From a virus, in the UHGV virus genome UHGV-1329780: a stretch of 40,311 nucleotides of DNA; one strand, 5' to 3'. Of the stretch, positions 2,737-38,177 are shown in pieces. Numbering within the stretch: position 1 is the stretch's first letter; the number at the start of each line of letters is the position of its first letter. The translations under genes were made by a program, and so were the position numbers. The notes beneath the pieces are model-generated. The model was given only the letters and a program-made list of their open reading frames with translations, made no database searches and had not been told where the DNA came from.

Positions 2737-3200
2737 TATTTTCTCTCCATGTGAAATCTGTGGAAATTAAGACCAAGAGCACCATAAGGCGCGGCTTCTT
2801 CAAGCCTGAATCCAAGCCAGTGCAGCCATGCTTTGGCAACATGGTTTCGCTCGTCGACGTAGTTTTCCAGGCGCGGATAAACTGCCAGCATCTGCTGCAA
2901 TACAGGGCGGCAGTGGCGAAGAAATGTCTTCTGATATTTTTCAATACGGCTGGTTCCTACCAGCCAGGGCGTACCATTGCCACCGATCATTGACGCCGGA
3001 GATACGCCAAACATGGTTACCAGTTCTCCGTTCGCAAATCCTGACCAGGCCATAGTCGCAGTACGCAGACCAACACGCAGCGCATCTTCGGTAGTCATCA
3101 GTGATACCGCATACAGTTCGTCAATATCAGCCTGACGAACATCCGGCAAAATCATCTGAAGATGCTCTTCGGTTGCGGGAATAATTTGAACATCAATCAT
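2736..3200 (-). CDS. Virion/assembly protein of unknown function
   Basis: 154 aa; start codon overlaps the stop of the 823-aa gene (translational coupling) inside the structural operon. Confidence 0.4.
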   Translation of the reverse strand: MIDVQIIPATEEHLQMILPDVRQADIDELYAVSLMTTEDALRVGLRTATMAWSGFANGELVTMFGVSPASMIGGNGTPWLVGTSRIEKYQKTFLRHCRPVLQQMLAVYPRLENYVDERNHVAKAWLHWLGFRLEEAAPYGALGLNFHRFHMERK

Positions 3201-5671
3201 CAGAACCCACCAACAGTAAGGCGAGGAATAACGGCAAGAACAGACAGCGGCAACGGATCAAGCTGACGGATTTTTACACGTCCGTTTTTGCCCCAGTTAC
3301 TGTCCAGTTTCACTTCTACTTTTCCGGTAGCATCATCAACAGGATCATCGTAGAACTCGAATTCACGCTGTGGATATTCGTACCATTTACCGCCGGGCGT
3401 AGTCGCCCAGATGCCGCGACTGGCATTCACAACCAGAGTAACGGACGGGATCACCTGTTTTTTGTCCAGCAGCGTTTCCTGTCCGTTAATGTTGATATCC
3501 AGTGTTTCGAATTCAGCAGTTATTGGCAGGCCGATGTGCACAACAGCCCCCGGTGATTCCAGCGTGACGGCACCTCCGGAAACCACTTTTTGTGGTTCCA
3601 CGTTCGCATCAGAGAGGATGTTTACGGTCTGGCCTTCAAGATGAGACAAGCCGCCAAATGTCCGGCGCGCCATCTGCCAGTTCGTGGTGGCCACATTCCT
3701 GAGGGATGGCGGGACGTTCCTGTTAGCACGAACCACTACTGCGGTATTGCTGGTTACAGAAATAATGTCGCAACGTAATTCTTTTGACACTTCATCGCCA
3801 GTATCAGGATCAGCTCCGGTATAAGGGAACTGTAGTTGCGCACCAACATCACTACTGGTGAAGTACGCACCACCAGAAACACTGATTGTATATTCCGCGT
3901 GGTAATCCCATTCACCAGAACCACCAGTGATGGTCATCGTTCTGTCAGACGTATTTCTTCCATCATAGCTAAGGCCAGAATCAACAAAGAAAGCATCTTC
4001 ATCGCTGGTAAATAAACGGCTGGACAGTCTCTCGATGTATCTCACTGTTTGCCCGTTAACGGTTCTGTTAACGACGAAATACACCGCATCTTCATTGCCT
4101 TCGCTGATACTGCATGTGCTTTCATATTTTCCGGTACTGGATTGTGGTGCCCATGCAAAAACCTGCTGATCACGCAAATAGGTCATCACCAGTAATTTAC
4201 CGTCATCACGAATGCAGAAGGCACTGGAGTAAGGGACAATCGAGAAGCACCAGTCAACAATGCTGTGCTTCTGAAAAAGATGATTGGCAAGGATAGTAAG
4301 GTCGTTCCCCTGATAGCCGTCAACATCGAATGAATAGGCCAGATCACGGACAACACTGCCTTTCTCCTGGACGAACAGAGCAATATTCGCCACGGCAATT
4401 GGTGGGACATTGCTCGAGCCATTTGATCCCTGAGAGCTGAATGCAAATGATGATGGGGTTAACACTTTGTTCTGGTCGCCGGTGATGACGTACTCACCTC
4501 CGGAAGTCAGCGCCACCAGAGAACCAACATCAATCAGGTGGCGGATCTCATTAACCTGACGCCCGGCATAGGTGTAGATAATTCTGTCGTCATCCTGCGT
4601 AGGATTGCTTTTGCCAAAATCCTTATAATCCCCGGTACGGCTGGCCCAGATAGTCTGAGGGAACGCAGTCGATGCGGCGAAGTAAAGACGCTGTTGATAA
4701 TAAACAACAGTGCCAGGATAACCATTAACACTGTTCCAGGCATATTTAGCCCATTTATAGCTGGCATTATCCTCGCCAACGACCTGCGAAGGGATATAGG
4801 AAATCACCTCAGCAGTTGCAGTAGTGCCATTTACAGCAGTTATACGGGCAATGCCAAAACCACTGTGCAGATACTCCCACTCAATACCAGTATCATCATC
4901 ACCGGAGCCGCCCCAGCCATCCCATGATGTGCCTTCTGTATGCGAAGGGCGCAAAGTGCCTGTTTTGCCTGCTGTAACGGCGCGATAGTAGTTACTGTCT
5001 GCACGGCGAATATCGCCAATCGACGTACTCTTACTGGTTTCCCATACCGGTACTGAATCCACTGCTGGCTGTTCCAGATAGAACAATTTGCCTACCTGCT
5101 CCGCGCCAAAAATAGAGGCGCTTGCCGTTAACGTAATTGTCCCGGTGCTGGCGCTGGCATAAACCGTCACTGACTCGTCAATATTGATATCTTCAAATGG
5201 CCCGTTCTTCGTTACCACATCAACCAGTTGCCAGTTGTCATGCGCATAGCGGCGCAACTCTTTCGGCGGGTATGCCGGATGAACCAGCGTAAGCACGTCT
5301 GCGCTTTGCGTGAATTTAATTCTGAACAGATCGGCTTCAGTATATGGCGTGGCAATTTCATAAATAACATTGCTGCTGTTCAGCACCAACGCACCATCTT
5401 TGATAACGCGCATGTACTGGTGTCCGAACTCCAGAGCATAAGTCTGAACCGTCGAGAACTGGAACGGGATCAGGCGGCATTTCCGATTTGGGTATTTGGC
5501 GGCACCGACAAAACGCGTACCAGGTCGATTCTCAACGCCGCCATACTGCCGCACGATAAAGTTATCGCACTTGCGCAATGCCACCTGGTACTTCGCCATG
5601 TCGATACGTCCGTACAACGACGGTCCAATCTCACCACCAGCAAAGCTGGGCTGGATCCAACTGATAGCCAT
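3200..5671 (-). CDS. Tail nozzle / tail tubular protein B-like protein
   Basis: 823 aa, directly downstream of the adaptor-like gene; size and position match the T7 gp12-class nozzle protein. Assignment is by synteny and size, not motif. Confidence 0.5.
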   Translation of the reverse strand: MAISWIQPSFAGGEIGPSLYGRIDMAKYQVALRKCDNFIVRQYGGVENRPGTRFVGAAKYPNRKCRLIPFQFSTVQTYALEFGHQYMRVIKDGALVLNSSNVIYEIATPYTEADLFRIKFTQSADVLTLVHPAYPPKELRRYAHDNWQLVDVVTKNGPFEDINIDESVTVYASASTGTITLTASASIFGAEQVGKLFYLEQPAVDSVPVWETSKSTSIGDIRRADSNYYRAVTAGKTGTLRPSHTEGTSWDGWGGSGDDDTGIEWEYLHSGFGIARITAVNGTTATAEVISYIPSQVVGEDNASYKWAKYAWNSVNGYPGTVVYYQQRLYFAASTAFPQTIWASRTGDYKDFGKSNPTQDDDRIIYTYAGRQVNEIRHLIDVGSLVALTSGGEYVITGDQNKVLTPSSFAFSSQGSNGSSNVPPIAVANIALFVQEKGSVVRDLAYSFDVDGYQGNDLTILANHLFQKHSIVDWCFSIVPYSSAFCIRDDGKLLVMTYLRDQQVFAWAPQSSTGKYESTCSISEGNEDAVYFVVNRTVNGQTVRYIERLSSRLFTSDEDAFFVDSGLSYDGRNTSDRTMTITGGSGEWDYHAEYTISVSGGAYFTSSDVGAQLQFPYTGADPDTGDEVSKELRCDIISVTSNTAVVVRANRNVPPSLRNVATTNWQMARRTFGGLSHLEGQTVNILSDANVEPQKVVSGGAVTLESPGAVVHIGLPITAEFETLDININGQETLLDKKQVIPSVTLVVNASRGIWATTPGGKWYEYPQREFEFYDDPVDDATGKVEVKLDSNWGKNGRVKIRQLDPLPLSVLAVIPRLTVGGF

Positions 5672-9187: not shown

Positions 9188-9480
9188 TCCTGTTCACTGG
9201 CCTCTTTGGCCATCTTCAAATACTGTTCAGGGCAATGCGCCATAACGCGCTGAAACAGTTCCAGCGCCAGATTGCGTTGCCCCTCATTAAATGCCATTGC
9301 CATAGCGTCCATCGGTGAGATAGCGGAAAACACCCGGCCTTTCTCCAGCACAGACCAGACAACGCGACGCCCCTGTTCACTGCTCATGACAAAGCGAATG
9401 TCATCAATTTCACGCTGGGCCATGTCACGTTGCTTACGGGCGTTTTCTTCTTTCAGTTGATCATCTTCGTAATCTGTCAT
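9184..9480 (-). CDS. Hypothetical head-module protein
   Basis: 98 aa, overlaps the portal stop and the scaffold start. Confidence 0.4.
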   Translation of the reverse strand: MTDYEDDQLKEENARKQRDMAQREIDDIRFVMSSEQGRRVVWSVLEKGRVFSAISPMDAMAMAFNEGQRNLALELFQRVMAHCPEQYLKMAKEASEQE

Positions 9481-11156
9481 TGTGATTGCCCACCCTGACC
9501 ACTAACTGCATTCGCCATAGCTGACAAAACACTCGGATCCGAAGTTTTAGCTTCGCTTAGCGTCTTGGCACCCTGTGCCGCCGCCATCCCCATCGCCATC
9601 ATTTGTTGCTGCTGTTGTTGCTGTGCCCGTTGCTGGCGAGCCTGCTCAACCTGTTCCTGCGGAACAATGACGGTTGGAGACACTCCGGACATATCAGCGA
9701 ATGCATCGATCGCCTGATCAACGTTGAGTTTGTCGAGAGCTTCTGGTTTCGCTTGCGCAAGTTGACCAATGAAGTTAACCGTGGACGCCAGACTGGACAG
9801 GCCGATAGACTTCTGCGCCTGAGCCATGACAGAAATGTATTCGACCTTCAGGGGCATACCTTCCATCGCGTCAGGCGGTGGCGGCAGCATGTTTTTACGC
9901 ACCATCATCGAGAAAGCGCGGTCAATGAGAGGATTAAGACATTCGTCGTTCAGACGCTCCAGAACCGGCCCCAACATCAGAAGTTTTTCTTCTTTCATTT
10001 CGATCACCGCTTCAACAGGCATCGAGCGGGTATTGATGTTCTGCAACATCATGAACAGATCGACAAAGTAGGCGCTGTTAATGATTTGGCGGGTGTCCTG
10101 AATGTCTGCTACCAGATCTGCTGTACTGGGGTTAACCAGATAAGCAGGCCTGAAACCATCCTGACCAGTAATCTGATCGATATACGTGATGTCGCCAGGA
10201 AGAAGGGAGGCGCGCTGATTCTTGAGGGAAGTCGGAGCAACCATCGGCGGATTGGTGGCTTTATCAATCAACTGCGACTTGCGCTTCTGGAGAAGCTGCA
10301 ATGCCTTAACAGGTCCAAGCGCCAGCATACCCGGGCATGATGATCCATAAACATCTTCGCCGTTAACTTCCCAGCGCGGAGCCATAATTGGAAACTCATC
10401 GAATCCGGACTCACGCAACAACTTGTCGTTATCGCCACCAACCTCGTAATAAACCGATTTGAATGGCTTGTTCTTGCTATCCAGCTTCGATGTATCGCGG
10501 TCAATGTTCGGGTAAACCGAATGCATCACTTCAATCCACTTCTCGTAGGTGCCGCTTTCCCACATGCTTTTTACGGATTCGCTGACGTTATTTAGCCCGA
10601 ACTCCTGAACAAGCTGACGAACAGTCATAGAGAACTTGCGGAAACAGGTGTCCACACTGCCACGAGGTGAGTTAGCCAGGTAGTAACTGCCTATCGGGAA
10701 TGGCATTGTGCGAATGATGTCCTCGTCATCCTCCAGCACCGCCATTGCACCAGTGCTGTATGTGCCGAGGCTTCCGTATAACTGCGGAAGAGACTGGTAG
10801 AGATTCGACTTATTGAACATATCGTTCATGCGGTTCTGCACCGCCTCAAGCCACAACTTAACAGGGCCATAATCCATCATTTCAGGATCTGGCGTAGCCA
10901 GGCGAAACCACGGACGCGCGGGGCTTGTGATGCCTGACATCATGCCGCTGGCGAGAGTGCGCGCCGCCATAGTCCCGGTCGAATCAATAATGCGTGTATT
11001 GCGTCGATCGTTACGGTTGACCTCAGAAGTCAGAAAGCGGGAACCACGCGGGTTGATGTAATCACTCAACTCGCGCCAGTGCGGCTCGAACGACTGACGC
11101 TCGCTTTCAAGTTGTGCGAACTGTTTGTTCAATCGCTCTTTAGTTGTTTCCGCCAT
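9477..11156 (-). CDS. Portal (head-to-tail connector) protein, T7 gp8-like
   Basis: 559 aa; GGAG RBS; the Gln/Met/Ala-rich C-terminal tail (QARQQRAQQQQQQQMMAMGMAAAQGA...) resembles the T7 gp8 C-terminus; follows the terminase genes. Confidence 0.7.
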   Translation of the reverse strand: MAETTKERLNKQFAQLESERQSFEPHWRELSDYINPRGSRFLTSEVNRNDRRNTRIIDSTGTMAARTLASGMMSGITSPARPWFRLATPDPEMMDYGPVKLWLEAVQNRMNDMFNKSNLYQSLPQLYGSLGTYSTGAMAVLEDDEDIIRTMPFPIGSYYLANSPRGSVDTCFRKFSMTVRQLVQEFGLNNVSESVKSMWESGTYEKWIEVMHSVYPNIDRDTSKLDSKNKPFKSVYYEVGGDNDKLLRESGFDEFPIMAPRWEVNGEDVYGSSCPGMLALGPVKALQLLQKRKSQLIDKATNPPMVAPTSLKNQRASLLPGDITYIDQITGQDGFRPAYLVNPSTADLVADIQDTRQIINSAYFVDLFMMLQNINTRSMPVEAVIEMKEEKLLMLGPVLERLNDECLNPLIDRAFSMMVRKNMLPPPPDAMEGMPLKVEYISVMAQAQKSIGLSSLASTVNFIGQLAQAKPEALDKLNVDQAIDAFADMSGVSPTVIVPQEQVEQARQQRAQQQQQQQMMAMGMAAAQGAKTLSEAKTSDPSVLSAMANAVSGQGGQSQ

Positions 11157-11170
11157 TTCAATGACTCCGG

Positions 11171-11377
11171 TTACTGACCAAGCAGCGTTTTACCGCTGGT
11201 ATTAGCGGTTGATGTGTCGCCCTGAGAACCGGTAAGCAGCGTAGAACTACGACCAGCAGCAGCGCGACGGCGACGAGTTTCTTCGTCGCGGGCATCAACA
11301 ACGGCGGCATCCTGCTCCTGTGGTGCTGCCTGAACTTCTGGTGTTGCAGGCACTGATGGTGAGCTACCCATGCACAT
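11171..11377 (-). CDS. Small Pro/Ala/Arg-rich hypothetical protein upstream of portal
   Basis: 68 aa; its start context CGGAGTCATTGATATG is nearly identical to the portal start context CGGAGTCATTGAAATG. Confidence 0.3.
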   Translation of the reverse strand: MCMGSSPSVPATPEVQAAPQEQDAAVVDARDEETRRRRAAAGRSSTLLTGSQGDTSTANTSGKTLLGQ

Positions 11378-11445
11378 ATCAATGACTCCGTACGCAATTA
11401 AATTATTACCAATTTAACCACATATGATTTATTTATCGTAGATAG

Positions 11446-11482
11446 TTGACATTTAACGCACTAATTATTACCTTTCAGGTAA
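11446..11482 (+). promoter_or_regulatory. Candidate promoter (-35 TTGACA) with TTACC-N5-GGTAA dyad over the -10 region, upstream of the tRNA cassette
   Basis: TTGACA at 11446-11451; dyad TTACCTTTCAGGTAA at 11468-11482; AT-rich context. Confidence 0.4.
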
Positions 11483-11804
11483 GCAAAGAGTTCATTCCGG
11501 TTATTAACCTGACTGGCTTGTCGTTAAATTGAACAGGTGGGGTGAGCTTTTATTTTGAGCAGTACGGTGTATGGCACATGCGCCGATAGCGGTCTGGATA
11601 CGTTTAAGGGGCACCCTCCCTTGCTCGGGCAAACGAACCAGGTAGCCGGAATGTGCAAGTCGAGCGGTTTTATTCCGCGCACGTGGATTCACCATCCCGG
11701 CGATTCGGTGTGACACCTCGGAAGAGACGAGGGTGCAACGATGAGAGCATTTATGGAGCCGCGACAAAGTGTGGTGCCTTAACAGGCTAAGTGCTCTCAG
11801 CGTT

Positions 11805-11881
11805 GTGGCATTAGCTCAGTTGGACAGAGCAACCGCCTTCTAAGCGGTTGGTCGCAGGTTCGAATCCTGCATGCCGCGCCA
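11805..11881 (+). tRNA. tRNA-Arg (anticodon TCT, reads AGA)
   Basis: Hand-folded cloverleaf: acceptor GTGGCAT/ATGCCGC (one G-U pair), D stem GCTC/GAGC with A20 in the D loop, anticodon stem ACCGC/GCGGT, loop CTTCTAA giving anticodon TCT, T stem GCAGG/CCTGC with TTCGAAT loop, discriminator G and encoded CCA. Confidence 0.9.
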
Positions 11882-12103
11882 GAATCACGCCTAAGGACCG
11901 TGATGCCAGAAGTTCCAGGGGCTTGGCGGTGATGGTTTCCCTTGAAGGACTATCACCGCCCTTTTTACAGCAGGACGCCATTGCGATGACTTCATGCTGT
12001 AAACCCGTACAGCCACGGAAGGCATAACTCATTGCTTCCAGTTCGCCCGGTTCGCCGGGCATTTTTTTGCTTGATGACCGCAAATTACCTTAAAGGTATA
12101 ATC

Positions 12104-12922
12104 ATGAAAAACTTCAAGGTAATTAGCATGTTTGAATCGTTCAAAGAGCTGTTTTTATCTACTGCCAATACTGCCGTGAATCGAGCCAAAAACCCTGTGC
12201 TTGGTGCTTTTGTTATGTCCTGGTGCGCCTTCAACTGGAAATCAATTCTTTATCTATTTTTTAGCAAATCAAACATAATAGATAAAATTTCATATATCTC
12301 AGATAACAGCACATGGAAAACTGTTATGTTTTATCCATGCTTATCTGTAATTGCTATCTGCTGCCTATTACCATGGGTAAACAATATCATTAACGTATGG
12401 CAAGCAAAGCCTCTTGATAATAATGACTCAATCGAAAATCACCTGAAGGCAAGAAAAATCCAGCGTGAAACCAGACTGCAGAGGTTATTAGCTAAAAAAG
12501 ATGTTACATACGACAAAGTTAAGACTGGCGCGGAAAAAGACATCCAAGAGATGAAAGAAGAGATTATTCGATCAAAGAATAGTATGGGGGAATTGACTGC
12601 CGAGTTGAAAGCTAAAGATGACGAATTGAGATCCGCCAGTGCTCAGTTAGCAGCTCTAAATCATTCATTAAAAGAGATATCGGAAACTCTGGGAAGAATG
12701 AATGAGGCATATAAGACCCTCCAAAATGATTTCGACGAATACAAACTCAAATACCCTGAAAAATCTCAAATAAAAAGCCTTGCACTTGGCAACGGCCAAA
12801 CAATTAGCAACTTTTTGGAGCAACACAACTTATCCGGATTAAAATCTGGTAAGCCAGACGTTTTTCATAACTTTGGTGTTCTATCTGGATTATCAGGTTT
12901 CGAGGATAAAAATAAAGACTAA
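12104..12922 (+). CDS. AT-rich moron protein: two predicted transmembrane helices plus C-terminal coiled coil (candidate superinfection exclusion / abortive infection protein)
   Basis: About 272 aa from ATG 12104 (alternative ATG 12128); hydrophobic segments PVLGAFVMSWCAFNW and VMFYPCLSVIAICCLLPWV followed by a Lys/Glu/Leu-rich heptad region; AT-rich with 5 of 8 Arg codons AGA/AGG and several ATA codons; opposite strand to the flanking late genes. Confidence 0.6.
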   Translation: MKNFKVISMFESFKELFLSTANTAVNRAKNPVLGAFVMSWCAFNWKSILYLFFSKSNIIDKISYISDNSTWKTVMFYPCLSVIAICCLLPWVNNIINVWQAKPLDNNDSIENHLKARKIQRETRLQRLLAKKDVTYDKVKTGAEKDIQEMKEEIIRSKNSMGELTAELKAKDDELRSASAQLAALNHSLKEISETLGRMNEAYKTLQNDFDEYKLKYPEKSQIKSLALGNGQTISNFLEQHNLSGLKSGKPDVFHNFGVLSGLSGFEDKNKD

Positions 12923-14394
12923 GCATATGGATCGTACTCGGTAAGCGCCTTGCCTTGCTGGTTCTGCTGCCCGGGAATTCGCAGACGCTTTGACACAGGG
13001 AAAGCAAACGTCAGCAGTAGCGCATCGCCTTTACCAGGCGAACGCCCAAGTCGTTCTTTGATATCTTCCTTCGGTTCGATAACGATTTTACCGTCCACGC
13101 GAACTTTGTACTCTGCCGCCGACAGATCGTCCGCTGTTTCCTGGTCATCCAGCATCCCGCCCAACCTCAGCCATGTCTTGCATGAGTTGAACATCTCCCC
13201 GCGCTTATTGAGCATCTGAGGGTCAGTTGACGCACCACCGAACGGAACAAGTTGCCATGTGCGCCCCCAGCCGTCACCGATTGACTTCAGACCGGTTCCG
13301 TAACCGAAGTCGATGAACACCGCGTCAGCCTGATACTGGTCTTCAAAGTCAGCGATACGCTTCGCCATAATCAGATCGTCAGTGGTCTTGTTGCCAGTCC
13401 ATAGCACCTTACTATGCAACCCCTGCCGCAGGTATATCACCGCGTCATCAACGCCTGAATATGCCGGGTCAACACCGATTATCACCGGAGCATGTGCCAC
13501 CTGCGCAGCGGTTACCACCCGTTTCATTGCCTCATCAGTAAGACCGGTAGGGATAAACTGCAATTCAGATGCATCAGGGAATATGCCGCGCACACGGATT
13601 TTAACGAAGTCGCTGTCTTCCCCGTAGTCATCAACCCATTTCTGCAACTGCTGTTTGTTAGTACCTTCCACCGTCCGGCTGTCAATCTGCGCAGTTTTCC
13701 AGCGGTGTTTGTATTTGCGGAAACATTCGCGAAAACGCCCGGTATTACGTGTAGGGTTTCCGAACGCCACCCAGATAATCTCAGTGTCTTCGTCCGTAAG
13801 CGCACCCTCAGCAACTTCCCACACCAGATCCGCAATGTTCGACGCTTCATCGAATACCACGATGATGCGTTTGCGCTCGTTGTGTAGTCCGGCGAATGCC
13901 TCAGTGTTGTGCTCAGACCAGGGGATTGCGTCAGCTCGCCACCGCTTGTCGTGCCCAGGGTCATTGCTGTACATCGCGGTAGCGGTACAGGTAAACCAGT
14001 CTTTCGTGATAGCAAGGTTCGACCACTTGATAATTTCCGGCCAGGTCTTCGTTCGTAGCTGGTTGTCGGTGTTGGCGGTCACCACGACCTTACAATCCTC
14101 GCAAGTGGACATGCCCCAGTTGATCAGCATTGAGATGAATGCGGATTTACCAATACCGTGACCAGAAGCGCGTGCCAGCATAAGCGGCTGATAGCGCGTC
14201 TCGGGATTCTGCAGGTGATCACGTATCTCTCGGAACGCATCGGCCTGCCACTGACGTGGGCCGGTAGCATGTGCCAGTTCAGTCCCCTCTTCCCCCCAAG
14301 GGAACGCATAGAGGGCATAACCAAGCGGATCGTGAGTGAACCCTGCAATATCCTCGATTAACTGCTCTTCAGGAGATAACACGGTATCTGTCAC
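12919..14394 (-). CDS. Terminase large subunit
   Basis: 491 aa; Walker A-like ARASGHGIGKS near the N-terminus, acidic nuclease-type C-terminal half; immediately downstream of the small subunit with overlapping stop/start. Confidence 0.8.
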   Translation of the reverse strand: MTDTVLSPEEQLIEDIAGFTHDPLGYALYAFPWGEEGTELAHATGPRQWQADAFREIRDHLQNPETRYQPLMLARASGHGIGKSAFISMLINWGMSTCEDCKVVVTANTDNQLRTKTWPEIIKWSNLAITKDWFTCTATAMYSNDPGHDKRWRADAIPWSEHNTEAFAGLHNERKRIIVVFDEASNIADLVWEVAEGALTDEDTEIIWVAFGNPTRNTGRFRECFRKYKHRWKTAQIDSRTVEGTNKQQLQKWVDDYGEDSDFVKIRVRGIFPDASELQFIPTGLTDEAMKRVVTAAQVAHAPVIIGVDPAYSGVDDAVIYLRQGLHSKVLWTGNKTTDDLIMAKRIADFEDQYQADAVFIDFGYGTGLKSIGDGWGRTWQLVPFGGASTDPQMLNKRGEMFNSCKTWLRLGGMLDDQETADDLSAAEYKVRVDGKIVIEPKEDIKERLGRSPGKGDALLLTFAFPVSKRLRIPGQQNQQGKALTEYDPYA

Positions 14395-21207: not shown

Positions 21208-21438
21208 TCATGAGTAGAAGAAGTATGCCAGTTCTGCTTTTGAGCGCAGCCATTGTCTTGTTTTACAGGCTTTAAAAAGCCCATTCATCAATACTTTACC
21301 TGGCATTTTGCGCTTGCCTGTTAAGTGAGTCTGGATATAGTGACTCGTCGTTCCGGCTTCCTGTGCGAAGGCTTCACGCTCATCCGGAGTAAGTGCAAGC
21401 CAGTGCTTTTTGAAATCGAAATGTCCGTTATCGCTCAT
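21208..21438 (-). CDS. Cro/CII-like small HTH regulator
   Basis: 76 aa; helix-turn-helix-like segment; first gene leftward of the divergent operator region. Confidence 0.5.
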   Translation of the reverse strand: MSDNGHFDFKKHWLALTPDEREAFAQEAGTTSHYIQTHLTGKRKMPGKVLMNGLFKACKTRQWLRSKAELAYFFYS

Positions 21439-21474
21439 AGCTATTGCCTGATATTTATTTCAGATAATAAATAT

Positions 21475-21537
21475 TCACCCATAAGGTAACAAAAATCAAG
21501 GATAGTTACCTATGAGGTGCATTTACCTGTTGGGTAA
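21475..21537. promoter_or_regulatory. oR-like operator cluster: three TTACC-N5-GGTAA-type dyads in the divergent intergenic region
   Basis: 21475-21489 TCACCCATAAGGTAA (variant), 21506-21520 TTACCTATGAGGTGC (variant), 21523-21537 TTACCTGTTGGGTAA (full), between the minus-strand cro-like gene and the plus-strand repressor gene. Confidence 0.55.
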
Positions 21538-21592
21538 TATTGCTTTAAATTGAATCATCTACTGATTCATATATGAGGCGATTTTCCAGAAA

Positions 21593-22177
21593 ATGAAAAG
21601 TATCCAGGACGTCCGCAGGCAAAATCTCAACGACTTGATCGACCGTGAATTCAATGGTGTTCAGACGCGGATGGCAGAAAAACTTGGAACTCAGGCAAAT
21701 CTGGTAAACCGCTGGGCTCTTGGCAAGAAGGTTATCGGCGACCAGGTTGCACGAAAAATTGAAGCTGCCGCCAATAAACCCCGTAACTGGCTTGATATTG
21801 ATCGTTCGCTTTCTCAGGAGGGTTTTCAGCCTGTCGGCCCGAGCGATATAGGTCAGCTGGCGGCTCACAACCTGGAACGCTGGATGAGCGAAAGCCGCGA
21901 CCTTTCAACACAGGGAAAACTTCACCGCGCATCCGGCGTCGCCCAGGTGACAATCAGCCGCCTGTTAAACAATGAGGTCAGCGTTTCCATTTCCACCCTG
22001 GAGAATGTTGCATCCGCATTCGGGCGTCACGGATATGAACTACTGATTCACCCGCACGACCCTGCGACTATCAACTATGACCGCTCACGCTACGCATTGT
22101 TACCCGAAACCGAGAAAGCAAAGATCGAAAGTTACATTGAATTTGTCATCAACCAGAACGAAAAAAGCAAACAATAA
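21593..22177 (+). CDS. CI-like prophage repressor with two HTH domains and no S24 peptidase domain
   Basis: 194 aa; HTH-like segments (MAEKLGTQANLVNRWALGK and ASGVAQVTISRLLNNEVSVSISTLENVASAFG); no Ser/Lys autocleavage module evident; divergent from the cro-like gene and followed by a strong terminator. Confidence 0.6.
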   Translation: MKSIQDVRRQNLNDLIDREFNGVQTRMAEKLGTQANLVNRWALGKKVIGDQVARKIEAAANKPRNWLDIDRSLSQEGFQPVGPSDIGQLAAHNLERWMSESRDLSTQGKLHRASGVAQVTISRLLNNEVSVSISTLENVASAFGRHGYELLIHPHDPATINYDRSRYALLPETEKAKIESYIEFVINQNEKSKQ

Positions 22178-29904: not shown

Positions 29905-29931
29905 CCCGCAAAATATTGCGGGCTTTTTTTT
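29905..29931 (+). terminator. Hairpin plus T8 tract at the tailspike 3' end (terminator-like on the plus strand)
   Basis: CCCGCAA-AATA-TTGCGGG followed by C and T8 on the plus strand, overlapping the tailspike stop codon region; preceded by an AT-rich 280-bp intergenic segment. Confidence 0.45.
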
Positions 29932-32900
29932 AACGTTCTTCCAGAGACTGAATCCGCTCTTTTATCTTATCCATTTCTCTGCGCTGCCATGCTGCCTCGA
30001 TATAGAATAAGAGATCAGGTCTGACCCCCCATCTAGATCCTGCTGGCGTTATTTCAACGCGCTCAATGATGTCTTCCATTACCATCACTGGATTATCATC
30101 CTCATCAACAATGATGCTCCCGTCATTATCAGTCAGCGGCATTTCCCTTTGGCCAGTAATGACATCATCATATACTGCGGGATAATCGTCATAGCAAAGA
30201 AAGGCATAGCGGCATGTTGTGCTTTCTTCTTCCATGAGTCCGTGAGAAATAAGAACATCACGAAGTTGCTGCGCGATTACACCATGATGTATCCTCGCCC
30301 CTTCTTCCCCCTTTATAGCGACAGCGTTCAGCCATTTATAAGCGATATACCTGACGTCACCCCAGGCATCCAGCAATGCTTCGTCAGGAGAGACCGGCTC
30401 TGTCTTTAATGTTCCGTCACTGGTAACCACAGGATTGGAGCCAAGATAAACTGTCGAGAACCTGTTTCCCGGACCACCAAGAGCATTTACATTATCAAGA
30501 TAAGGTTTAACATCTCCGTTCTCAAAAAGATGTTCGAGTGCGTTATATACCGCGCGACGTGGAGTACTGCTTCCGGAACCATGCAACGTTATCATTGCAC
30601 CATCTGCTGAAGACGTTGTTTCACCGCCGCTAACGATTAATCTCTGAGCGGTAACATCATCAGACGGTACTTTCTTCGCAATAATGGCGTAATTACCCTC
30701 AAGTTTGACTTCCGCGCGAACTTGTCCTGATGTACCTGCATGGACAGTCAGTGACTGGACGGCAACATCATCTGTGAAATCAACGGGTACAGGAACCGTC
30801 CTCACGCCTGACGTCGACATAAAAGTAGGAAGCGTTCTGTTAGGAGTGGCTCCGTAGACAAAATCCCTTGAAACAAATTCTTCCTGTTTAATTTTCACCC
30901 TGAAACAATACAAATCAGCCGGGTGACCATCGTGAACATAAGGATATTTTCTGTTGTTATCCCCTATGCTCCATGGGTTTAGAAAGTCTTCCCCACCGAA
31001 AATGTAGTACAGCCAGTTGTCTTTGATACAAACTGAACCAACACCAACCGCAGAGTTAACTATTCCGCCCTGATAAATCTGATCAGTAACATTAACCCAC
31101 TCTACATTATCCAGACTCCACTCATTGACGTTAACTCTGGTCATAAATGTTCTTGGATAATTTCCTGCATAACGGTTATCAGGTTCTCCTCCTTCCCACT
31201 CACCAAATGCGCGCTCACTGCCAAAAATAATCAGCTCATCGCCAACTTTGGCAAAAGGAAGGTTTGAGTGATGAACATTATTTGGGAAGCGAAGAGAATT
31301 CCATGATGTACCTAAATCAGAGCTTCTGTGCAATGAACTACCGGGTTGAGTACTTAATGTCCCCCTGGTCGTCAGATACAGAATGCCATCATAATATTTT
31401 ACACATGGCTCAGATGCATTCGCCTCATATTCTGCAGGTATGCGTCTGCGAACAAAGCTACCAGGAGAACCGAAAGCATCAGAGAAATAGAGTATCCCAA
31501 GCTCGCGTGGACCAATATCACCATTATGGTAGCCAACAGCAAAACTGTTATCGCTAATCGTCGCAAAACTGTGAATCTCAGTAACAGGAGTGCTTCCGTC
31601 AACAAAAGAAGGAATAGTTCCAAGACTGGTTTTTCTCCATGGTGACGAGTGAAATGATGTACCAAAACTCCAGTATCTACCCTCGTTATTCTGATCCACA
31701 TCCTGGGTATTTTGCGTCGTAACTGTAAAAGTATTTTTATCAATAACAGTAGTCACCGTCATATTCCCGGTAACACCTGTAACACCAGAGTTTGAGAAGT
31801 TGACAAAATCACCAGCAAATAATCCGTGATCAGTAATGCGAATATAAGCGACTTGCTGATTTGCTGCTTTCGTTATACCACCATAAACGCGAAGGCTGCG
31901 ACTCATTGGGCGATCCCACAACTCTGCAACCTGCAGTTTATTTCCGCTCACGGTCCGCGTCTCAATTACAGCAAAAAGGCGATTTCTGACAACCCCCATA
32001 CTCATGCAGTGATAGTTAACTGTGGGATAGTTTTCATGTAAATCTGTAAGCCATTCCGGCGTTGTCCAGGTCTTCCCGTCATCTCCTGAGCGAACCCATG
32101 CAACATGGAGGTTATTTACACCATGGCGGTCTCCAGCCATAAAAGGCGCATAGATGACATTGTCATATACAAACGTTTTATCCTGCGTCCAGGCGTTGTA
32201 CCACGGTGTATCTGTAATTTTAAATAACTCTCCCTGGATAAAATCTTCAGAAGCATAAAAAAGAGGCTGGCCCGGTATTCTCTCAAATAAAAAACGAGCA
32301 TTTTTAAATCGACTGACATCCGGAAGAGTTGATACTTTAAAAGTAAGCCCTAATCCGTCAATTTTATAACCTGGAGATGAGGCTTCAAGGCACGCGCTTA
32401 TTGCAGTGGAATCGTCATTTATACCATCACCAACAGCTCCAAAATCTTTGGGGCTAATAGCATCACGCATTTTATCCTGGAACGTTCGGTACACAGCCCC
32501 AGAACCATACTGAATAAACCAACCAAAACCACCAACAACCCCGGCGATTGCAGCATCGACATAATTACGCATTGAGCGATTATTTACAGCGTCCTGCTCA
32601 AATGATGGATCTGCAAGGTTAGAAATTTTGTTTTGCTTTGCATCGTAATATTTTGCAAGCAAAGATGGTTTCATCAATGCACGTCTGAACCACCCAAAAC
32701 ATTGCTGGATCAGCATCGTCAGGTAGTCAAAGGCATCTTCATGCACTTCGGGGAAAAATTTTCCCTGATTGCGAAGGTCTGTCTCCTGCACTACATCAAG
32801 CACACGATCTATCGTAATTCGCCATCCAGTAGCAAGCGGAGACGGAAGAACCACAGAACCGCCACTATAAGTGCCCGCCCCAGTTACCGTATAACCGGTA

Positions 32901-33049
32901 TCCAGAACCAATTCTGTTACGTTTCCGTTCAGGTCAGACACCTGAACAACCAGGTCTGATTTTCTGAAAATTCGAAAAGTATACGGAAACGATGTCGTAA
33001 CGCCGTTACCGGTGTATTCGTTGTGGTCAACTTCGGTTGAGACCGTCAT
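29930..33049 (-). CDS. Tailspike protein with Asp-box (sialidase-like) motifs and C-terminal intramolecular-chaperone-like domain
   Basis: 1039 aa; GGAG RBS; N-terminal particle-binding-type domain; DFGAVGDGINDDSTAI motif; Asp-box-like SGDDGKTW and SSDLGTSW; C-terminal segment with HHGVIAQQLRDVL resembling self-cleaving chaperone domains of endosialidase-type tailspikes. Confidence 0.7.
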   Translation of the reverse strand: MTVSTEVDHNEYTGNGVTTSFPYTFRIFRKSDLVVQVSDLNGNVTELVLDTGYTVTGAGTYSGGSVVLPSPLATGWRITIDRVLDVVQETDLRNQGKFFPEVHEDAFDYLTMLIQQCFGWFRRALMKPSLLAKYYDAKQNKISNLADPSFEQDAVNNRSMRNYVDAAIAGVVGGFGWFIQYGSGAVYRTFQDKMRDAISPKDFGAVGDGINDDSTAISACLEASSPGYKIDGLGLTFKVSTLPDVSRFKNARFLFERIPGQPLFYASEDFIQGELFKITDTPWYNAWTQDKTFVYDNVIYAPFMAGDRHGVNNLHVAWVRSGDDGKTWTTPEWLTDLHENYPTVNYHCMSMGVVRNRLFAVIETRTVSGNKLQVAELWDRPMSRSLRVYGGITKAANQQVAYIRITDHGLFAGDFVNFSNSGVTGVTGNMTVTTVIDKNTFTVTTQNTQDVDQNNEGRYWSFGTSFHSSPWRKTSLGTIPSFVDGSTPVTEIHSFATISDNSFAVGYHNGDIGPRELGILYFSDAFGSPGSFVRRRIPAEYEANASEPCVKYYDGILYLTTRGTLSTQPGSSLHRSSDLGTSWNSLRFPNNVHHSNLPFAKVGDELIIFGSERAFGEWEGGEPDNRYAGNYPRTFMTRVNVNEWSLDNVEWVNVTDQIYQGGIVNSAVGVGSVCIKDNWLYYIFGGEDFLNPWSIGDNNRKYPYVHDGHPADLYCFRVKIKQEEFVSRDFVYGATPNRTLPTFMSTSGVRTVPVPVDFTDDVAVQSLTVHAGTSGQVRAEVKLEGNYAIIAKKVPSDDVTAQRLIVSGGETTSSADGAMITLHGSGSSTPRRAVYNALEHLFENGDVKPYLDNVNALGGPGNRFSTVYLGSNPVVTSDGTLKTEPVSPDEALLDAWGDVRYIAYKWLNAVAIKGEEGARIHHGVIAQQLRDVLISHGLMEEESTTCRYAFLCYDDYPAVYDDVITGQREMPLTDNDGSIIVDEDDNPVMVMEDIIERVEITPAGSRWGVRPDLLFYIEAAWQRREMDKIKERIQSLEER

Positions 33050-33225: not shown

Positions 33226-33244
33226 ATTGCATGGAGAAGATAAG

Positions 33245-33502
33245 ATGCAGCAGTATCACTATCCACTGGAAGACGGATTTACCGAAAGGATTCACACGCC
33301 GGGAGGCGTCAGGTCACTGGTGGAGGGATCGCACTTGATGAAATTACTCCGGGATCTCGATAAGGATGGATTTAATGTCGATGGCCCACTTGCCGAACTG
33401 ACTGCACTGATTAACTACGTCACCAGCTCACAGATGTCTATGCGGGATCTGCAAACACATCTCGACTATTGTGCCGAACAATTACGAAAACAAACCAGAT
33501 AA
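33245..33502 (+). CDS. Small LexA-controlled protein homologous to the antirepressor C-terminal domain (candidate SOS-inducible antirepressor)
   Basis: 85 aa; GGAGAAG RBS; about 50 percent identical by eye over about 75 aa to the C-terminal region of the 33818-34528 product (IHTPGGV...LMKLL...DG.NVDGPLAELTAL..RDLQTH). Confidence 0.6.
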   Translation: MQQYHYPLEDGFTERIHTPGGVRSLVEGSHLMKLLRDLDKDGFNVDGPLAELTALINYVTSSQMSMRDLQTHLDYCAEQLRKQTR

Positions 33503-34571: not shown

Positions 34572-34615
34572 ATTGCAGACTGTGGGTGAATAGCGTACTA
34601 TTACCTTAAAGGTAA
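34572..34615 (+). promoter_or_regulatory. Candidate promoter (TTGCAG-N17-TACTAT) with TTACC-N5-GGTAA dyad at the transcript start
   Basis: Dyad TTACCTTAAAGGTAA at 34601-34615 immediately upstream of an AGGAGG RBS and ATG 34628. Confidence 0.45.
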
Positions 34616-34627
34616 AGGAGGCGCGAT

Positions 34628-34795
34628 ATGACAGCGTTGAAAAATCGTACTCAGCACAATGAACAAGCCAAGCAATGCTGGGATGTCATTGGAAAAGTTA
34701 TGCTTGGCCGCGCAAGCAAAGAGCGCGACAAGGATATGGTTTACCAGACAGGAACATCTTTCAGCGACTTCAAGGCGGCATTTCGCTCCAAATAG
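34628..34795 (+). CDS. Small protein, first gene of a two-gene moron
   Basis: 55 aa (below the ORF-track cutoff); strong AGGAGG RBS at spacing 7; stop 20 nt before the next start. Confidence 0.45.
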   Translation: MTALKNRTQHNEQAKQCWDVIGKVMLGRASKERDKDMVYQTGTSFSDFKAAFRSK

Positions 34796-34815
34796 AAGCA
34801 CATCAGGAGTTTTCC

Positions 34816-35256
34816 TTGAAGTTTAACATTAGAATATCTAATAGTTTTCTACATGGGGAAAGCAACACCCCTTTCGCTGTAGACGGACCTTTCCTTACTG
34901 ATGATGAAATAAAAATCATACAAAGTTTTTTAGAGGATGTTGCCAATGGAAGGGCGCTTGTTGGAAAAAACAAGCCCTCGTGGGTTGATGATAACCATGA
35001 TAAAATTCCCGGCTCAGACAATTATGAGCAAGAGAATTATTGGCATTATCATTGTGGGCCAACATGGTATCCAAACACATTTAAGAATTATACCATTAAC
35101 TTAAATTTCAACCCTGGCGGAAGGCATTCTAATGAATGCATTCATTATGCAAAAAATGATAATGAAATTGTCATTGTTGGATTTTCAAGAGAACACATAC
35201 CTTTCCTTTCATCAGATGGAAACAACAATCCGCTTTTTAATGATGAAGAAGAATAG
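34816..35256 (+). CDS. AT-rich moron protein of unknown function (Asn/Asp-rich, acidic C-terminus)
   Basis: About 146 aa from TTG 34816 (AGGAG at spacing 6); AT-rich relative to flanking late genes; followed immediately by an intrinsic terminator; no family recognised by eye. Confidence 0.5.
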   Translation: MKFNIRISNSFLHGESNTPFAVDGPFLTDDEIKIIQSFLEDVANGRALVGKNKPSWVDDNHDKIPGSDNYEQENYWHYHCGPTWYPNTFKNYTINLNFNPGGRHSNECIHYAKNDNEIVIVGFSREHIPFLSSDGNNNPLFNDEEE

Positions 35257-35702: not shown

Positions 35703-38177
35703 TTATTGCGGAGTGACATCCTGTGGTCGCCACCAGTATGTCTGGTTAAACTCTTTCTTCGAACGTTGCTCCATTTTACGCAAATAACCTGGTGAAAAAT
35801 ACTCCTGCATCTGGTTAAAGATCATGTGATCGAGAGCCGCCTTCAAGTACCAGAGATTCGCACCTGGCATCAGACCTTTCCCCAGCTTAACCAGATCACC
35901 ACCAGTCTGCTCACTCTTCCCTTCCACAGCATTTAACGGTATGCCCTGAGCAATCTTCACTACGTCATCAACCAGACCAGCTACCGGGCCAAGCATCGAC
36001 GCCAGCGCGCCGCTTCCGTACCTAGTGTGATCTGACAATAAAAAGTCACCGTAAAGGCCAAGACCACCACCTTTCAGTAGAGCACCAAGCCAAAATTTAG
36101 CAGCATCTTCTCCTGTCATCTCGCGAGGATTACGACCAGACGCAAGGTCGTTAAGTTGCTGCGACAAAGCGCCAAGAATGGTCGTACTGGCAATAAACGT
36201 CGCAATATATGCCGCACGCCCACCAGCAGACGGCATACCCATAGCGCGTGACCAGTGACGCATAACCACCGAGATAGGGAACGATTTAAACAGGAAAACA
36301 CTTCTCGTTAATTCACCTTTCCATGTTCCACGCTGAATACCAGAACCGGTTATCAGTTGCTCACGTGCTCCCGGTGTAATAACAGCCATATCAACTTCTT
36401 CAGTTACGGCACCGAGCAGTTTACGCATTGCCTCAAATTTCACGCGTTCAGGCTCACCAAGATGTTTAACTGCTGAATCAGGGATACGCATAATGCTTTC
36501 CGGTGTCAGCATCGTATTATTACCGTTCCCCCAGTCCTCCTGTTTCGCCAGCTTCCATACGCTCCAGTCTGTGTCAGTAATCCCTTTGCTTTTCAGGATA
36601 CGAAAATCAGAGTCATCGAGGCTACGAAGGTCTGGTGTACGTGACACTACTTCTCCCAGGCTTCCCATCATGGTTACGCCATAGGCGCGCTTGTGCGCAT
36701 CTGACCATGCTGTAAGCCCACTGGCACGCATTACCGCCGTTGCCGCCCAACGAGACACTGACGGCCCCATATTATCCATCGCCCAGCGGTTAACGCTGCC
36801 AAGTAGAGATTCCATCGCCAGACCAGCGCGGCGCGCCCGCGCAAGTTCTGTACGGTTCGTTGGGTCCATAGCTTCAAGCTGGTTGCGGAATAACTGGTTC
36901 ATTGGAAGGTTGGTAACCTTCGCAGACAGATACATGGTTCCAAGATCAGAGAACGATGACAGCAACGCGGATCCGAGTCTGCTGGCAACCAGCCAGTTGC
37001 GGATATTGTCAGACCATCGCGCGATGTGCGGATTCGCTACAGGCTGTGTCTTTCCGGAAATAAAGTTGTACAGATTCTCTGTGTTGTTCGCCAGCCGCTC
37101 GACTTTACCGGTTTTACTCGGGTTAGCTGTTGCCGTTTCTGCCTTCACCTGATCAAGAAGAGAGCGGAAAACATGATCGGGGTTTGGGCCATATGTTTCC
37201 ACCAGTGCAATATCTTTACTGATACCTTCCAGGTGACCGACCATGATTTCCCATAGAGAGCGATCGCCATAAAGTTGCTGATATTGCAGATAGGAATCTG
37301 CATCTTTGAAATGTATCTGTCGTGATGCATTACCACGGTTAGCACGTGCGCCGGAAATTCGCATTCCGGTATCAGTAAGCTTATTCAGCCCACCAGTAGC
37401 GATCGTGTTATAAGCCTCTCCAAGAAATGAAGACAACTCGGCATCGTTCATCAGTTGTCCATCGGCTCGGATATAATATTTGCGATCCAGCTTACCTATA
37501 ACATCGCTAACCCACTTATCCTTTGATACTGCCCCAACCTTTTCCATAGAATGATGTTGAGGGATCCCCCAGTTTTCGAGATAGCCAATGTCCCCACCAG
37601 CATCATTAAACCGGCGGCGCAGCAGCTCTGTAACTTCTCTCCACGCCTTAGCACCGTTTCTTGCTTTAGCATTGCCAGTATTTTGCCCCCGCATTTCATA
37701 TACCAGGTCACGTACGCCCGCTTCATCTTCAAACAGACCAAAAAAGCGAGGATCAACTGCTTCGAATGCCTCCTGCAATTGACTCAATGCATAATCACGG
37801 GTGGCTTTTGTTCTGGATTCAACAGAGAGGAAATTAGATTTACCGTCTGCATTAAAAGCTATAGTACGGTTAAGAGCGCCAAGTTTCCCATCAGCCCCTT
37901 GATAGCTATTGATAAATTTATCCAATCTCTGACGCGCGGCTATAGTGAGAGCCACACGACGTTTCTTTAATGCCGCTTCTCGCTGTAATTCTTCAGATGC
38001 CAATTGTGCTGCTCGATATAGCCGCTCTGATTCGGAAAGTTGTCTCCACGACATCGGGTCATCACGAGCAATGGAGCGCATATTTCGATAAATGCGGTCT
38101 TCAATGTTCTGTATTTCTCGCGCCGTTAACGTGCGCTGCGCCGCCTGCTGGACCGCTTGTATACATTCCTGTCTCAT
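35703..38177 (-). CDS. Large internal virion (ejection/core) protein
   Basis: 824 aa; last large gene of the core module, coupled to the upstream 600-aa gene; identity assigned by size and position. Confidence 0.5.
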   Translation of the reverse strand: MRQECIQAVQQAAQRTLTAREIQNIEDRIYRNMRSIARDDPMSWRQLSESERLYRAAQLASEELQREAALKKRRVALTIAARQRLDKFINSYQGADGKLGALNRTIAFNADGKSNFLSVESRTKATRDYALSQLQEAFEAVDPRFFGLFEDEAGVRDLVYEMRGQNTGNAKARNGAKAWREVTELLRRRFNDAGGDIGYLENWGIPQHHSMEKVGAVSKDKWVSDVIGKLDRKYYIRADGQLMNDAELSSFLGEAYNTIATGGLNKLTDTGMRISGARANRGNASRQIHFKDADSYLQYQQLYGDRSLWEIMVGHLEGISKDIALVETYGPNPDHVFRSLLDQVKAETATANPSKTGKVERLANNTENLYNFISGKTQPVANPHIARWSDNIRNWLVASRLGSALLSSFSDLGTMYLSAKVTNLPMNQLFRNQLEAMDPTNRTELARARRAGLAMESLLGSVNRWAMDNMGPSVSRWAATAVMRASGLTAWSDAHKRAYGVTMMGSLGEVVSRTPDLRSLDDSDFRILKSKGITDTDWSVWKLAKQEDWGNGNNTMLTPESIMRIPDSAVKHLGEPERVKFEAMRKLLGAVTEEVDMAVITPGAREQLITGSGIQRGTWKGELTRSVFLFKSFPISVVMRHWSRAMGMPSAGGRAAYIATFIASTTILGALSQQLNDLASGRNPREMTGEDAAKFWLGALLKGGGLGLYGDFLLSDHTRYGSGALASMLGPVAGLVDDVVKIAQGIPLNAVEGKSEQTGGDLVKLGKGLMPGANLWYLKAALDHMIFNQMQEYFSPGYLRKMEQRSKKEFNQTYWWRPQDVTPQ

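Follow-up and report, generated by a model that had tools for sequence, protein, structure and literature searches.

A plus-strand region embedded in the minus-strand late operon of the virus genome UHGV-1329780 was analyzed; the whole stretch of 40,311 nucleotides (nt) is called the window, and positions refer to it throughout. Covariation and genomic context indicate that the leader of this region is a conserved structured RNA, which is far more structured than first guessed and is the interesting object of its transcription unit. On the same grounds, the RNA family appears to be widespread and well supported, and it heads early operons in three unrelated phage groups. The region itself was found to consist of two early units, probably operator-controlled, that are split by two intrinsic terminators, rather than of one cassette. 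Unit 1 contains promoter P1, the structured RNA, a gene for tRNA-Arg(UCU), and the terminators T1 and T2. Unit 2 contains its own promoter P2 with operator O2 and the gene for a membrane coiled-coil protein of 264 amino acids (aa). Both the tRNA gene and the gene for the membrane protein are add-ons of an ordinary kind under separate control. A first-pass annotation had listed a TTGACA promoter with a dyad, about 320 nt of noncoding, structured leader, the tRNA gene, and an AT-rich gene, and all of these were found where it had placed them.

The leader has a length of about 322 nt between the inferred transcription start and the tRNA, and the structured element starts at about +78 from promoter P1. 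The stretch from 11560 to 11806 is a member of a conserved RNA family with seven helices and a pseudoknot. The core on the plus strand (11560..11746, detected with the covariance model R1) comprises the helices P1 to P5 and the pseudoknot, and it contains the invariant sequence GGTAGCCGGAATGTGCAAG at 11641-11659. The pseudoknot (11690..11710, plus strand) is formed by four base pairs (bp) between the hairpin loop CACC at 11690-11693 and GGTG at 11707-11710, and it was 100% paired in 42 sequences. The 3' domain P6 (11735..11806, plus strand) is a hairpin of 18-19 bp, in which 11735-11753 pair with 11788-11806 and which carries a variable apical insert; the last two bases of its helix are at the same time nt 1-2 of the tRNA. 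Across the family the core has a length of 165-193 nt, and together with P6 the element comprises about 250 nt in the window. Several single-stranded stretches are invariant, e.g., GGUAGCCGGAAUGUGCAAG.

The fold was examined with RNAalifold on 22 diverse members, and base pairs were counted on 42 distinct sequences. In the pseudoknotted model 98.9% of the cells were paired, compared to 30-46% when the partners were slid against each other. Double changes were seen at 11 pairs, and the number of double-change cells was 90, compared to 24.8 +/- 5.7 in shuffled alignments, none of which (0 of 500) reached the observed value. Within the pseudoknot, an exchange of C-G for A-U was observed in four sequences of the cdtI-like lineage, and many members had compensatory variants in P6 (e.g., GAGAGCA/TGCTCTC, AAGAGCA/TGCTCTT, and GAGCGCA/TGCGCTC). 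Invariant G-U pairs assign the structured RNA to the plus strand. The median pairwise identity of 39 representatives was 70%. These were obtained by reducing the at least 120 loci that were found by a pattern scan of IMG/VR. Model R1 detected exactly one copy in the window (140.3 bits, E 3e-43), and it gave one match among 100 unrelated genome loci (736 kb), which turned out to be a genuine copy in Kosakonia sacchari. The control loci were the first 100 of 120 that were returned by a 14-mer scan of genome contigs, and the other 99 were chance matches.

A protein-coding function of the leader was also considered and was rejected. The core varies in length by numbers that are not multiples of three, an open frame is missing in 7 of 43 members, and no conserved reading frame was found in the leader; in addition, the G-U pairs and the compensatory changes fit a plus-strand RNA. 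Searches with Rfam 15 of positions 11300-13000 revealed only the tRNA at E<1, the leader of phage cdtI gave nothing credible at E<10, and the leaders of the phages HK022 and LLS, searched at permissive thresholds, did not yield a family for the element. No description of the RNA element was found in the literature, which was searched by sequence string, context, and topic. The family is apparently undescribed, and the element may be an unnamed entry in an automated catalogue of phage RNA candidates (PMC10690425).

The element was present in 1837 of 5426 complete Escherichia coli genomes (about 34%), and the NCBI pipeline had annotated it in none of them. Matches were obtained to 87 phage records, which included Uetakevirus, lambdoid, Stx2, and P1/P7 phages. 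Positions 11564-11808 of the window were about 80-83% identical to unannotated DNA of lambdoid phages (cdtI, mEp460, 2H10, Ayreon, Stx2c, and Stx2a phages), and the first approximately 165 nt of the element matched the phages P1 and P7 and their relatives. A tRNA-Arg(UCU) was located directly 3' of the element at 31 of 126 loci, an arrangement of the Uetakevirus context, and at 92 of the 126 loci the element occurred without any tRNA. A terminator of -17 kcal/mol or stronger was found 130-280 nt downstream of the element in 24 of the 39 representatives, and no terminator of that strength was found upstream of it in the 39. Two further observations concern variants of the element. The viral contig L018 contains two tandem cores about 800 nt apart on its minus strand (3986-4157 and 4793-4962, 115 and 157 bits). 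In L006 (Stx2a_1447, around 2690-2800) and in L008 the apical insert of P6 holds one or two hairpins that resemble T arms, CTGGTTCAATTCCAG and GTCCGTTCGATTCGGAC; they could be tRNA-like modules or tRNA remnants, and ARAGORN called no tRNA at that position in L008.

The first of the three genomic contexts is that of the window. By sequence identity and flanking genes, the source is a phage or prophage of the epsilon15/phiV10 type (Uetakevirus). Over positions 11380-12068 the identity to phiV10, TL-2011b, the O157 typing phages 9 and 10, and further phages was about 98%, and this match stops at 12068. The flanks are genes of the Uetakevirus late operon, all on the minus strand: portal (9477-11156) and a small gp3-like open reading frame (ORF, 11171-11377) on one side, and the genes for the large terminase subunit TerL (12919-14394) and the small subunit TerS on the other. 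The plus-strand region is thus placed between gp3/portal and TerL, and, therefore, late transcription must cross 11380-12922 in antisense.

The second context is that of the lambdoid phages, in which the element occupies the nutL/putL slot between the promoter PL and the first early-left gene. In phage cdtI the order is cI, a terminator, a promoter TTGACA-16-CATAAT with a palindromic operator (PL), the element at about +45, strong terminators, and the first genes; no promoter was found between the downstream terminator and the first of these. The first four early-left genes of cdtI, the one lambdoid phage that was scanned in this way, are similar to yfdP/Q/R, and no N-like gene is among them. 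More generally, in all nine diverse members outside of Uetakevirus that were tested, the upstream gene encodes a cI-type repressor (helix-turn-helix with or without Peptidase_S24), the sequence of which differs, and a TTGACA-type promoter candidate is located between this gene and the element.

The third context is phage P1. There, the core follows a tRNA-Ile(CAU) at a distance of 14 nt and lies just ahead of ban; it belongs to the ban operon under C1 control, in which two additional tRNAs and a dicF-like region are present. In this case (L004, 3210-3275) the core ends about 40 nt before an ORF of 14 codons, the stop codon of which overlaps the ban start (TAATG), and, thus, the RNA could influence the translation of ban. 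All three contexts are repressor-controlled early transcripts.

Phage LLS is informative for the separation of the two domains. In its genome paper from 2025 the phage is described as N-less, and the authors propose that antitermination is put-like (PMC12315714). LLS shares the early-left genes of cdtI. Its PL leader (L258, PQ299149, 7732-8359, minus strand, 628 nt) is devoid of the RNA core; it holds terminator-like hairpins and, alone, the P6 domain, i.e., a P6-like hairpin ending with GTTGTGGTAAT. In the equivalent slot a weak match to the small RNA RprA was found (40.8 bits compared to a gathering score of 70). The PL leaders of N-less lambdoid phages thus appear to be modular arrays of RNA elements.

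The early character of both units of the window is suggested by their promoters. Promoter P1 (11447..11475, plus strand) has the -35 box TTGACA at 11447-11452, a spacer of 17 nt, and the -10 box TACCTT at 11470-11475, and it is a plausible sigma-70 promoter. Its -10 box is overlapped by the perfect dyad TTACCTTTCAGGTAA (11468..11482), denoted operator O1, and epsilon15, the phiV10-like phages, and other relatives have this promoter together with this dyad. Promoter P2 (12074..12102, plus strand; ATGACC, 17-nt spacer, TATAAT) is located just upstream of the membrane protein ORF, and a further copy of the dyad, operator O2 (TTACCTTAAAGGTAT, 12085..12099), covers part of its spacer and its -10 box. 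In prophages of E. coli and Salmonella, the arrangement TGACC-N5-TTACCTTAAAGGTAGAAT was also found upstream of homologues that are 57-70% identical at the protein level. With up to two mismatches, the dyad TTACCTnnnAGGTAA occurs 16 times in the window, compared to 0.87 occurrences expected by chance. A cluster of three copies at 21475-21537 separates a cro-like gene (21208-21438, minus strand) from a cI-like gene (21593-22177, plus strand), and further copies were found ahead of an anti-repressor-like gene and of other early genes. The GenBank record of epsilon15 labels the equivalent site at promoter P1 "repressor; lysogeny". Position and this label suggest that the dyad is the operator of the CI-like repressor of the phage. 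As both promoters carry this operator, both units are probably off in the lysogen and on early in lytic growth.

Some additional features of the operator system were noted. The cro-like gene, the three operators, and the cI-like gene form the immunity region (21208-22177), and dispersed dyads are located at 19174, 19236, 21475-21537, 22235, 22297, 27551, 33154, 33534, and 34601. They precede several plus-strand genes, including the anti-repressor-like ORF 33227-33502, and this scattered layout is reminiscent of phage P1. A perfect dyad at 34601-34615 lies ahead of ORF 34675-35256 (plus strand), a second AT-rich ORF (GC content 0.39, AGA/AGG at six of nine Arg codons, phrog_5954 of unknown function), which by these features looks like another repressor-controlled moron.

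The two units are separated by the terminators. T1 (11925..11968, plus strand, hairpin 11925-11960) was predicted as an intrinsic terminator with a stem of 14 bp and about -22 kcal/mol, which is followed by CTTTTTAC. T2 (12045..12068, plus strand, hairpin 12045-12060) consists of GCCCGGTTCGCCGGGC and then ATTTTTTT, and its end coincides with the end of the block that is conserved with the phiV10-like phages. Both terminators are devoid of an A-run on the upstream side and look unidirectional; thus, they should not block late transcription, which proceeds from TerS and TerL to gp3 and portal. In epsilon15 (L005, 2550-2700) a deletion begins within the RNA core and extends to T1's 3' half, so that T1, the tRNA, and the greater part of the leader RNA are missing. 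The record of epsilon15 moreover lists an RNase III site, which is located on the late (minus) strand and just upstream of the element, and because of this site pairing of the early and late transcripts of this region might matter.

The first-pass annotation had treated the region as a single cassette, with a tRNA that could serve the neighboring gene or counter anticodon nucleases, and with a possible exclusion or abortive-infection protein; in the single-cassette model considered here, the leader would be passive, and the protein would be expressed from the prophage. Some features of the gene would fit this view: it is AT-rich and moron-like, five of its eight Arg codons are AGA or AGG, as had been claimed and as the codon count confirmed, it is one of several alternatives in its slot, and it encodes a membrane-associated protein with a hypervariable C-terminus, as expected in an arms race. 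The organization of the locus speaks against it. Two terminators and a separate promoter with operator lie between the tRNA and the gene, and the block of promoter P1, RNA, tRNA, T1, and T2 is about 98% conserved in phiV10-like phages that have a different downstream ORF. This is an unrelated ORF of 123 aa after T2, for which no separate promoter is present, and the ORF downstream abuts T2 in phiV10 and epsilon15. In two further loci of the Uetakevirus type no ORF at all is present between the terminators and the convergent TerL gene; one of them carries the leader RNA with the tRNA (L122), the other the leader RNA without it (L054). Conversely, Salmonella relatives have the membrane protein gene and lack both the tRNA and the conserved 5' hairpin motif of the RNA. 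The leader, moreover, is the conserved structured RNA described above, which is without tRNA at most of its loci. Together with the distribution of AGA/AGG codons and the operators, which are treated below, these results make the single cassette very improbable.

For the function of the structured RNA the following account is preferred. Promoter P1 would drive a transcript of about 480 nt, which would end at the tandem terminators T1 and T2, and a cut by RNase P at the 5' end of the tRNA would separate the structured RNA from the tRNA. The structured RNA would be the functional heart of unit 1 rather than a passive leader. It would fold on the nascent transcript and render the transcribing RNA polymerase resistant to termination; the logic would be that of the put RNA of phage HK022, with an unrelated and much larger fold. 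In lambdoid phages the RNA would carry transcription from PL past the strong terminators in front of the first early-left gene, and in phiV10 and epsilon15 it would carry transcription past T1 and T2 into the promoter-less ORF. Antitermination is favored because of the nutL/putL slot in seemingly N-less phages, the terminators before the first gene, and the promoter-less ORF behind T1 and T2 in phiV10 and epsilon15. We infer every functional step of this account from what was observed directly, i.e., the parts, the fold of the RNA, the covariation, the distribution, the contexts, the operator logic, and the codon counts. For the RNA, antitermination by the nascent transcript is ranked first, as a tentative choice; a trans-acting RNA is ranked second and is by itself somewhat unlikely, and a riboswitch-like sensor is third and improbable. 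The account as a whole, consisting of two early units, a nascent-RNA antiterminator, a tRNA for the late genes, and a separate moron, is regarded as possible rather than probable.

Several points weigh against antitermination. In the window the downstream ORF has its own promoter and read-through is not visibly needed, and in L054 and L122 unit 1 is an RNA-only unit, so that read-through would just produce antisense RNA to terL. In phage P1 the core is 2.3 kb away from the ban promoter, it follows a tRNA, and no terminator is located downstream. The element is present in a single copy per phage and has no counterpart in the PR operon, in contrast to HK022, which has both putL and putR; neither a second core or P6 copy nor a PR-side counterpart was found in the window and the lambdoid loci searched. 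The PL leader of LLS is equally long and contains terminators, and yet it has the P6 domain only, which weakens the idea of antitermination for the core. BLAST and a search of the HK022 PL leader with the covariance model revealed no similarity to put, and expression or processing data for the element were not found in the literature searched. Furthermore, the identity of the dyad as operator is based on its position and on the annotation of another record.

Owing to the promoter of the downstream gene, the RNA-only units, the copy in phage P1, the missing PR copy, and phage LLS, a processed RNA that acts in trans is favored about as much. Such a stable RNA would be freed by RNase P in the window, or by tRNA 3' processing in phage P1, and early in infection it would associate with a conserved macromolecule of the host, in the service of host takeover or of counter-defence. 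Unit 1 would then be an operon of two RNA genes that is insulated by T1 and T2, and RNA-only units such as L054 and L122 would be expected. The element is indeed found among RNA genes, i.e., next to the tRNA-Arg on its 3' side at the 31 of 126 loci and next to the tRNA-Ile on its 5' side in P1-like phages, where the ban operon adds its two further tRNAs and the dicF-like region, and in the LLS leader the weak RprA-like match occupies the equivalent slot. A strong terminator regularly follows the element, as it would an RNA gene, the core and P6 are separable modules, and the long invariant single strands and the pseudoknotted fold would suit a specific binding partner. A trans-acting RNA would, however, leave unexplained how the early-left genes of lambdoid phages are expressed through the terminators, as the unit lies between PL and these genes. 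In addition, no candidate target or partner was identified, and the literature searched contained no evidence for a stable RNA species.

The riboswitch-like sensor would reside in the 5' leader of an early operon, and a small molecule or ion would gate termination downstream (lambdoid phages, Uetakevirus) or the initiation of translation (tub/ban of phage P1). The element is always in sense orientation, in leaders or intergenic regions upstream of genes, its core is highly conserved and pseudoknotted, and its peripheral hairpins and the sequence downstream of it vary; these features would be in accordance with a sensor. In phage P1 about 40 nt lie between the end of the core and the ribosome-binding site that serves the small ORF overlapping the ban start. 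An alternative pairing is also possible, between AUGUGC at 11652-11657 and GCACAU in hairpin P1; both strands are invariant and, thus, beyond the reach of covariation. However, the terminator follows at a distance of 130-280 nt, and the interval is filled by unrelated sequence or a tRNA; an adjacent expression platform is thus absent. Moreover, the downstream genes have no common metabolic theme, and RNA-only units exist.

The tRNA-Arg(UCU) gene (11805..11881, plus strand) encodes the CCA end. The first-pass annotation had called it canonical, and this was borne out by ARAGORN, which found a canonical cloverleaf with the anticodon tct at position 35, and by the Rfam tRNA model, which gave 69.4 bits compared to a gathering score of 29. 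A BLAST comparison with the host tRNA-Arg gene between fimZ and intD, i.e., argU, revealed 87.3% identity over nt 7-77. The D-loop GGAC keeps the A at the position read as A20, and A20 is an identity element for arginyl-tRNA synthetase. The anticodon loop is CTTCTAA, and that of argU is presumably identical. No evidence was found for a spare tRNA that withstands anticodon nucleases, and nothing in this argU-like loop suggests nuclease evasion.

The codons AGA and AGG are rare in E. coli, with roughly 2 and 1 per 1000 codons, respectively. In the ORF set of the window, which includes some spurious ORFs, their frequencies were about 8 and 6 per 1000 codons. The load was highest in late genes, with 24 codons in the ORF of tailspike size at 29930-33049, 10 in 38183-39985, and 9 each in 3200-5671 and 35703-38177. 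The neighboring membrane protein gene contains five, and the proposal that the tRNA boosts the expression of its neighbor is, accordingly, weak. The tRNA would add decoding capacity for AGA/AGG to a phage that is heavy in these codons, mainly in late genes. Codon usage suggests that it most likely serves these AGA/AGG-rich late genes, and general codon supplementation is the simplest explanation, because the largest loads are in late genes and because the neighbor, which does not accompany the tRNA consistently, contributes just five of these codons.

Unit 2 is a separate moron, with its own operator-controlled promoter and a putative inner-membrane coiled-coil protein. The gene (12128..12922, plus strand; phrog_4780 of unknown function) has a GC content of 0.36-0.39, compared to about 0.52-0.55 in the flanks, and its Arg codons are four AGA, one AGG, one CGT, and two CGA. 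The start codon is most likely the ATG at 12128, leading to 264 aa, and not that at 12104, because a length of 264 aa is shared by most homologues and because the alignment with the phrog_4780 profile begins at residue 9. No convincing terminator was found after the gene. The classification as a moron is based on the presence of P2 and O2, the GC content of 0.38 compared to 0.52, and the variable content of the slot among relatives, which is occupied by the unrelated ORF of 123 aa in phiV10-like phages and is empty in L054 and L122. The homologues are all annotated as "hypothetical", and their genes lie in this slot between gp3/portal and TerL in the Uetakevirus-like prophages that were sampled from E. 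coli and Salmonella.

Two transmembrane helices and a long coiled coil had been proposed for the protein. One helix is clear (residues 65-91, Kyte-Doolittle value 2.15), and the second one is marginal (residues 23-46, about 1.2). The AlphaFold model is all-helical and of low confidence (predicted local distance difference test, pLDDT, 66; predicted template modeling score, pTM, 0.25), and its single long helix at residues 134-208 is in accordance with a predicted coiled coil. The first approximately 160 residues are strongly conserved and include many invariant positions, in contrast to the C-terminal coiled coil of about 100 residues, which is hypervariable. That no protein family is recognizable was confirmed: Pfam, NCBIfam, PADLOC, and PDB sequences yielded coiled-coil noise only, and Foldseek, queried with the model of pLDDT 66, found no fold match in the PDB at E<=0.001.

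The variable C-terminus suggests that the protein recognizes a variable envelope partner during lytic growth. As a guess, it could have a lytic role at the envelope, e.g., the exclusion of a secondary infection or an action on a variable partner of host or phage. An exclusion or abortive-infection function that is exerted by expression from the prophage is disfavored and unlikely, because the repressor operator lies over promoter P2.

The results have several implications. A conserved, covarying, pseudoknotted RNA is found exactly at the early-left slot in phages with many different repressors. Among its carriers are Stx2-converting phages and phage P1. To our knowledge, HK022 put is the only natural RNA class that makes E. 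coli RNA polymerase resistant to termination on its own, and we know of no explanation for early gene expression in many N-less lambdoid phages. It is doubtful, but conceivable, that the structured RNA represents a new class of pseudoknotted phage RNAs that reprograms host transcription from the nascent transcript, by factor-independent antitermination or by an anti-Rho activity, with a fold unrelated to put. If true, this class would explain early-left expression in many N-less lambdoid phages, and epsilon15-like podophages as well as phage P1 would have borrowed this module. If the RNA acts in trans or senses a ligand, it would still be a new and abundant class of phage RNA. It would be expressed at the induction of medically relevant prophages. 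For annotation, it follows that "hypothetical" morons with repressor operators should not be assumed to be lysogenic-conversion genes.

Each of the three parts of the region can be compared with known systems. The tRNA corresponds to the argU-like tRNA-Arg(UCU) genes of temperate coliphages, with which it shares the anticodon, the cloverleaf, the kinship to argU, and the residence in an AGA/AGG-rich phage; the sole peculiarity lies in its first two bases, which also belong to the P6 helix. For the membrane protein, T4 Imm, P22 SieA, and HK97 gp15 are membrane superinfection-exclusion or moron proteins that can be regarded as functional analogues only. They are likewise small membrane-anchored products of AT-rich, swappable genes among structural genes and have a rapidly diverging domain. 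The protein of the window has no sequence, profile, or fold similarity to a characterized protein, and the operator at its promoter points to lytic expression.

With respect to the structured RNA, the species 1 and 2 RNAs of phage T4 and the RNase P-processed RNAs C4 (P1/P7) and CI (P4) are stable RNAs that are co-processed with phage tRNAs. The element is likewise a noncoding RNA that adjoins a tRNA in an early transcript, and tRNA-processing enzymes would set one of its ends. It differs from these RNAs in that it had no Rfam match at E<1 (Rfam includes a C4 family), has no known antisense target, and is mostly tRNA-less. With lambda the element shares the genomic slot of nutL; the lambda system, however, encodes the N protein downstream, and no N-like gene was found near the element within the first four early-left genes of cdtI. 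In P6, the 3' strand consists of GUGCUCUC or GUGCUCUUU with GUUGUGG after it, and it thus resembles boxA of rrn operons and lambda, the consensus of which is (U/C)GCUCUU(U)A. But this strand is paired and covaries off the consensus, e.g., in the GUGCGCUC variants, and the resemblance is probably a coincidence.

The closest parallel is put of HK022, factor-independent antiterminator RNAs (putL and putR) of about 70 nt with two stem-loops each (PMC9378689). Homology was considered and rejected, as the sole shared 13-17-mer lies inside nun and the covariance model had no match. Rfam had no match on the putL region, i.e., it holds no put model, and its silence is uninformative on a relation to put. 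The element is larger, with 170-250 nt, seven helices, and a pseudoknot. Furthermore, put is present in two copies, one per early operon, and the element in one copy per phage (two in tandem in L018). Unlike put, the element also occurs in podophages and in phage P1, where antitermination has no obvious target. The put RNA acts via the zinc-binding domain of RNA polymerase's beta' subunit, and such an action would be hypothetical for the element. The parallel itself is one of position: like put, the element is a sense-strand cis RNA just after a repressor-controlled early promoter of an N-less phage, with terminators ahead. This is seen at about +78 in the window and at about +45 from PL in cdtI, but not in phage P1, where the core lies 2.3 kb from Pban. 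Likewise, downstream terminators are present in 24 of 39 representatives and N is absent from the first four early-left genes of cdtI; in L054 and L122, however, the terminators have no ORF behind them.

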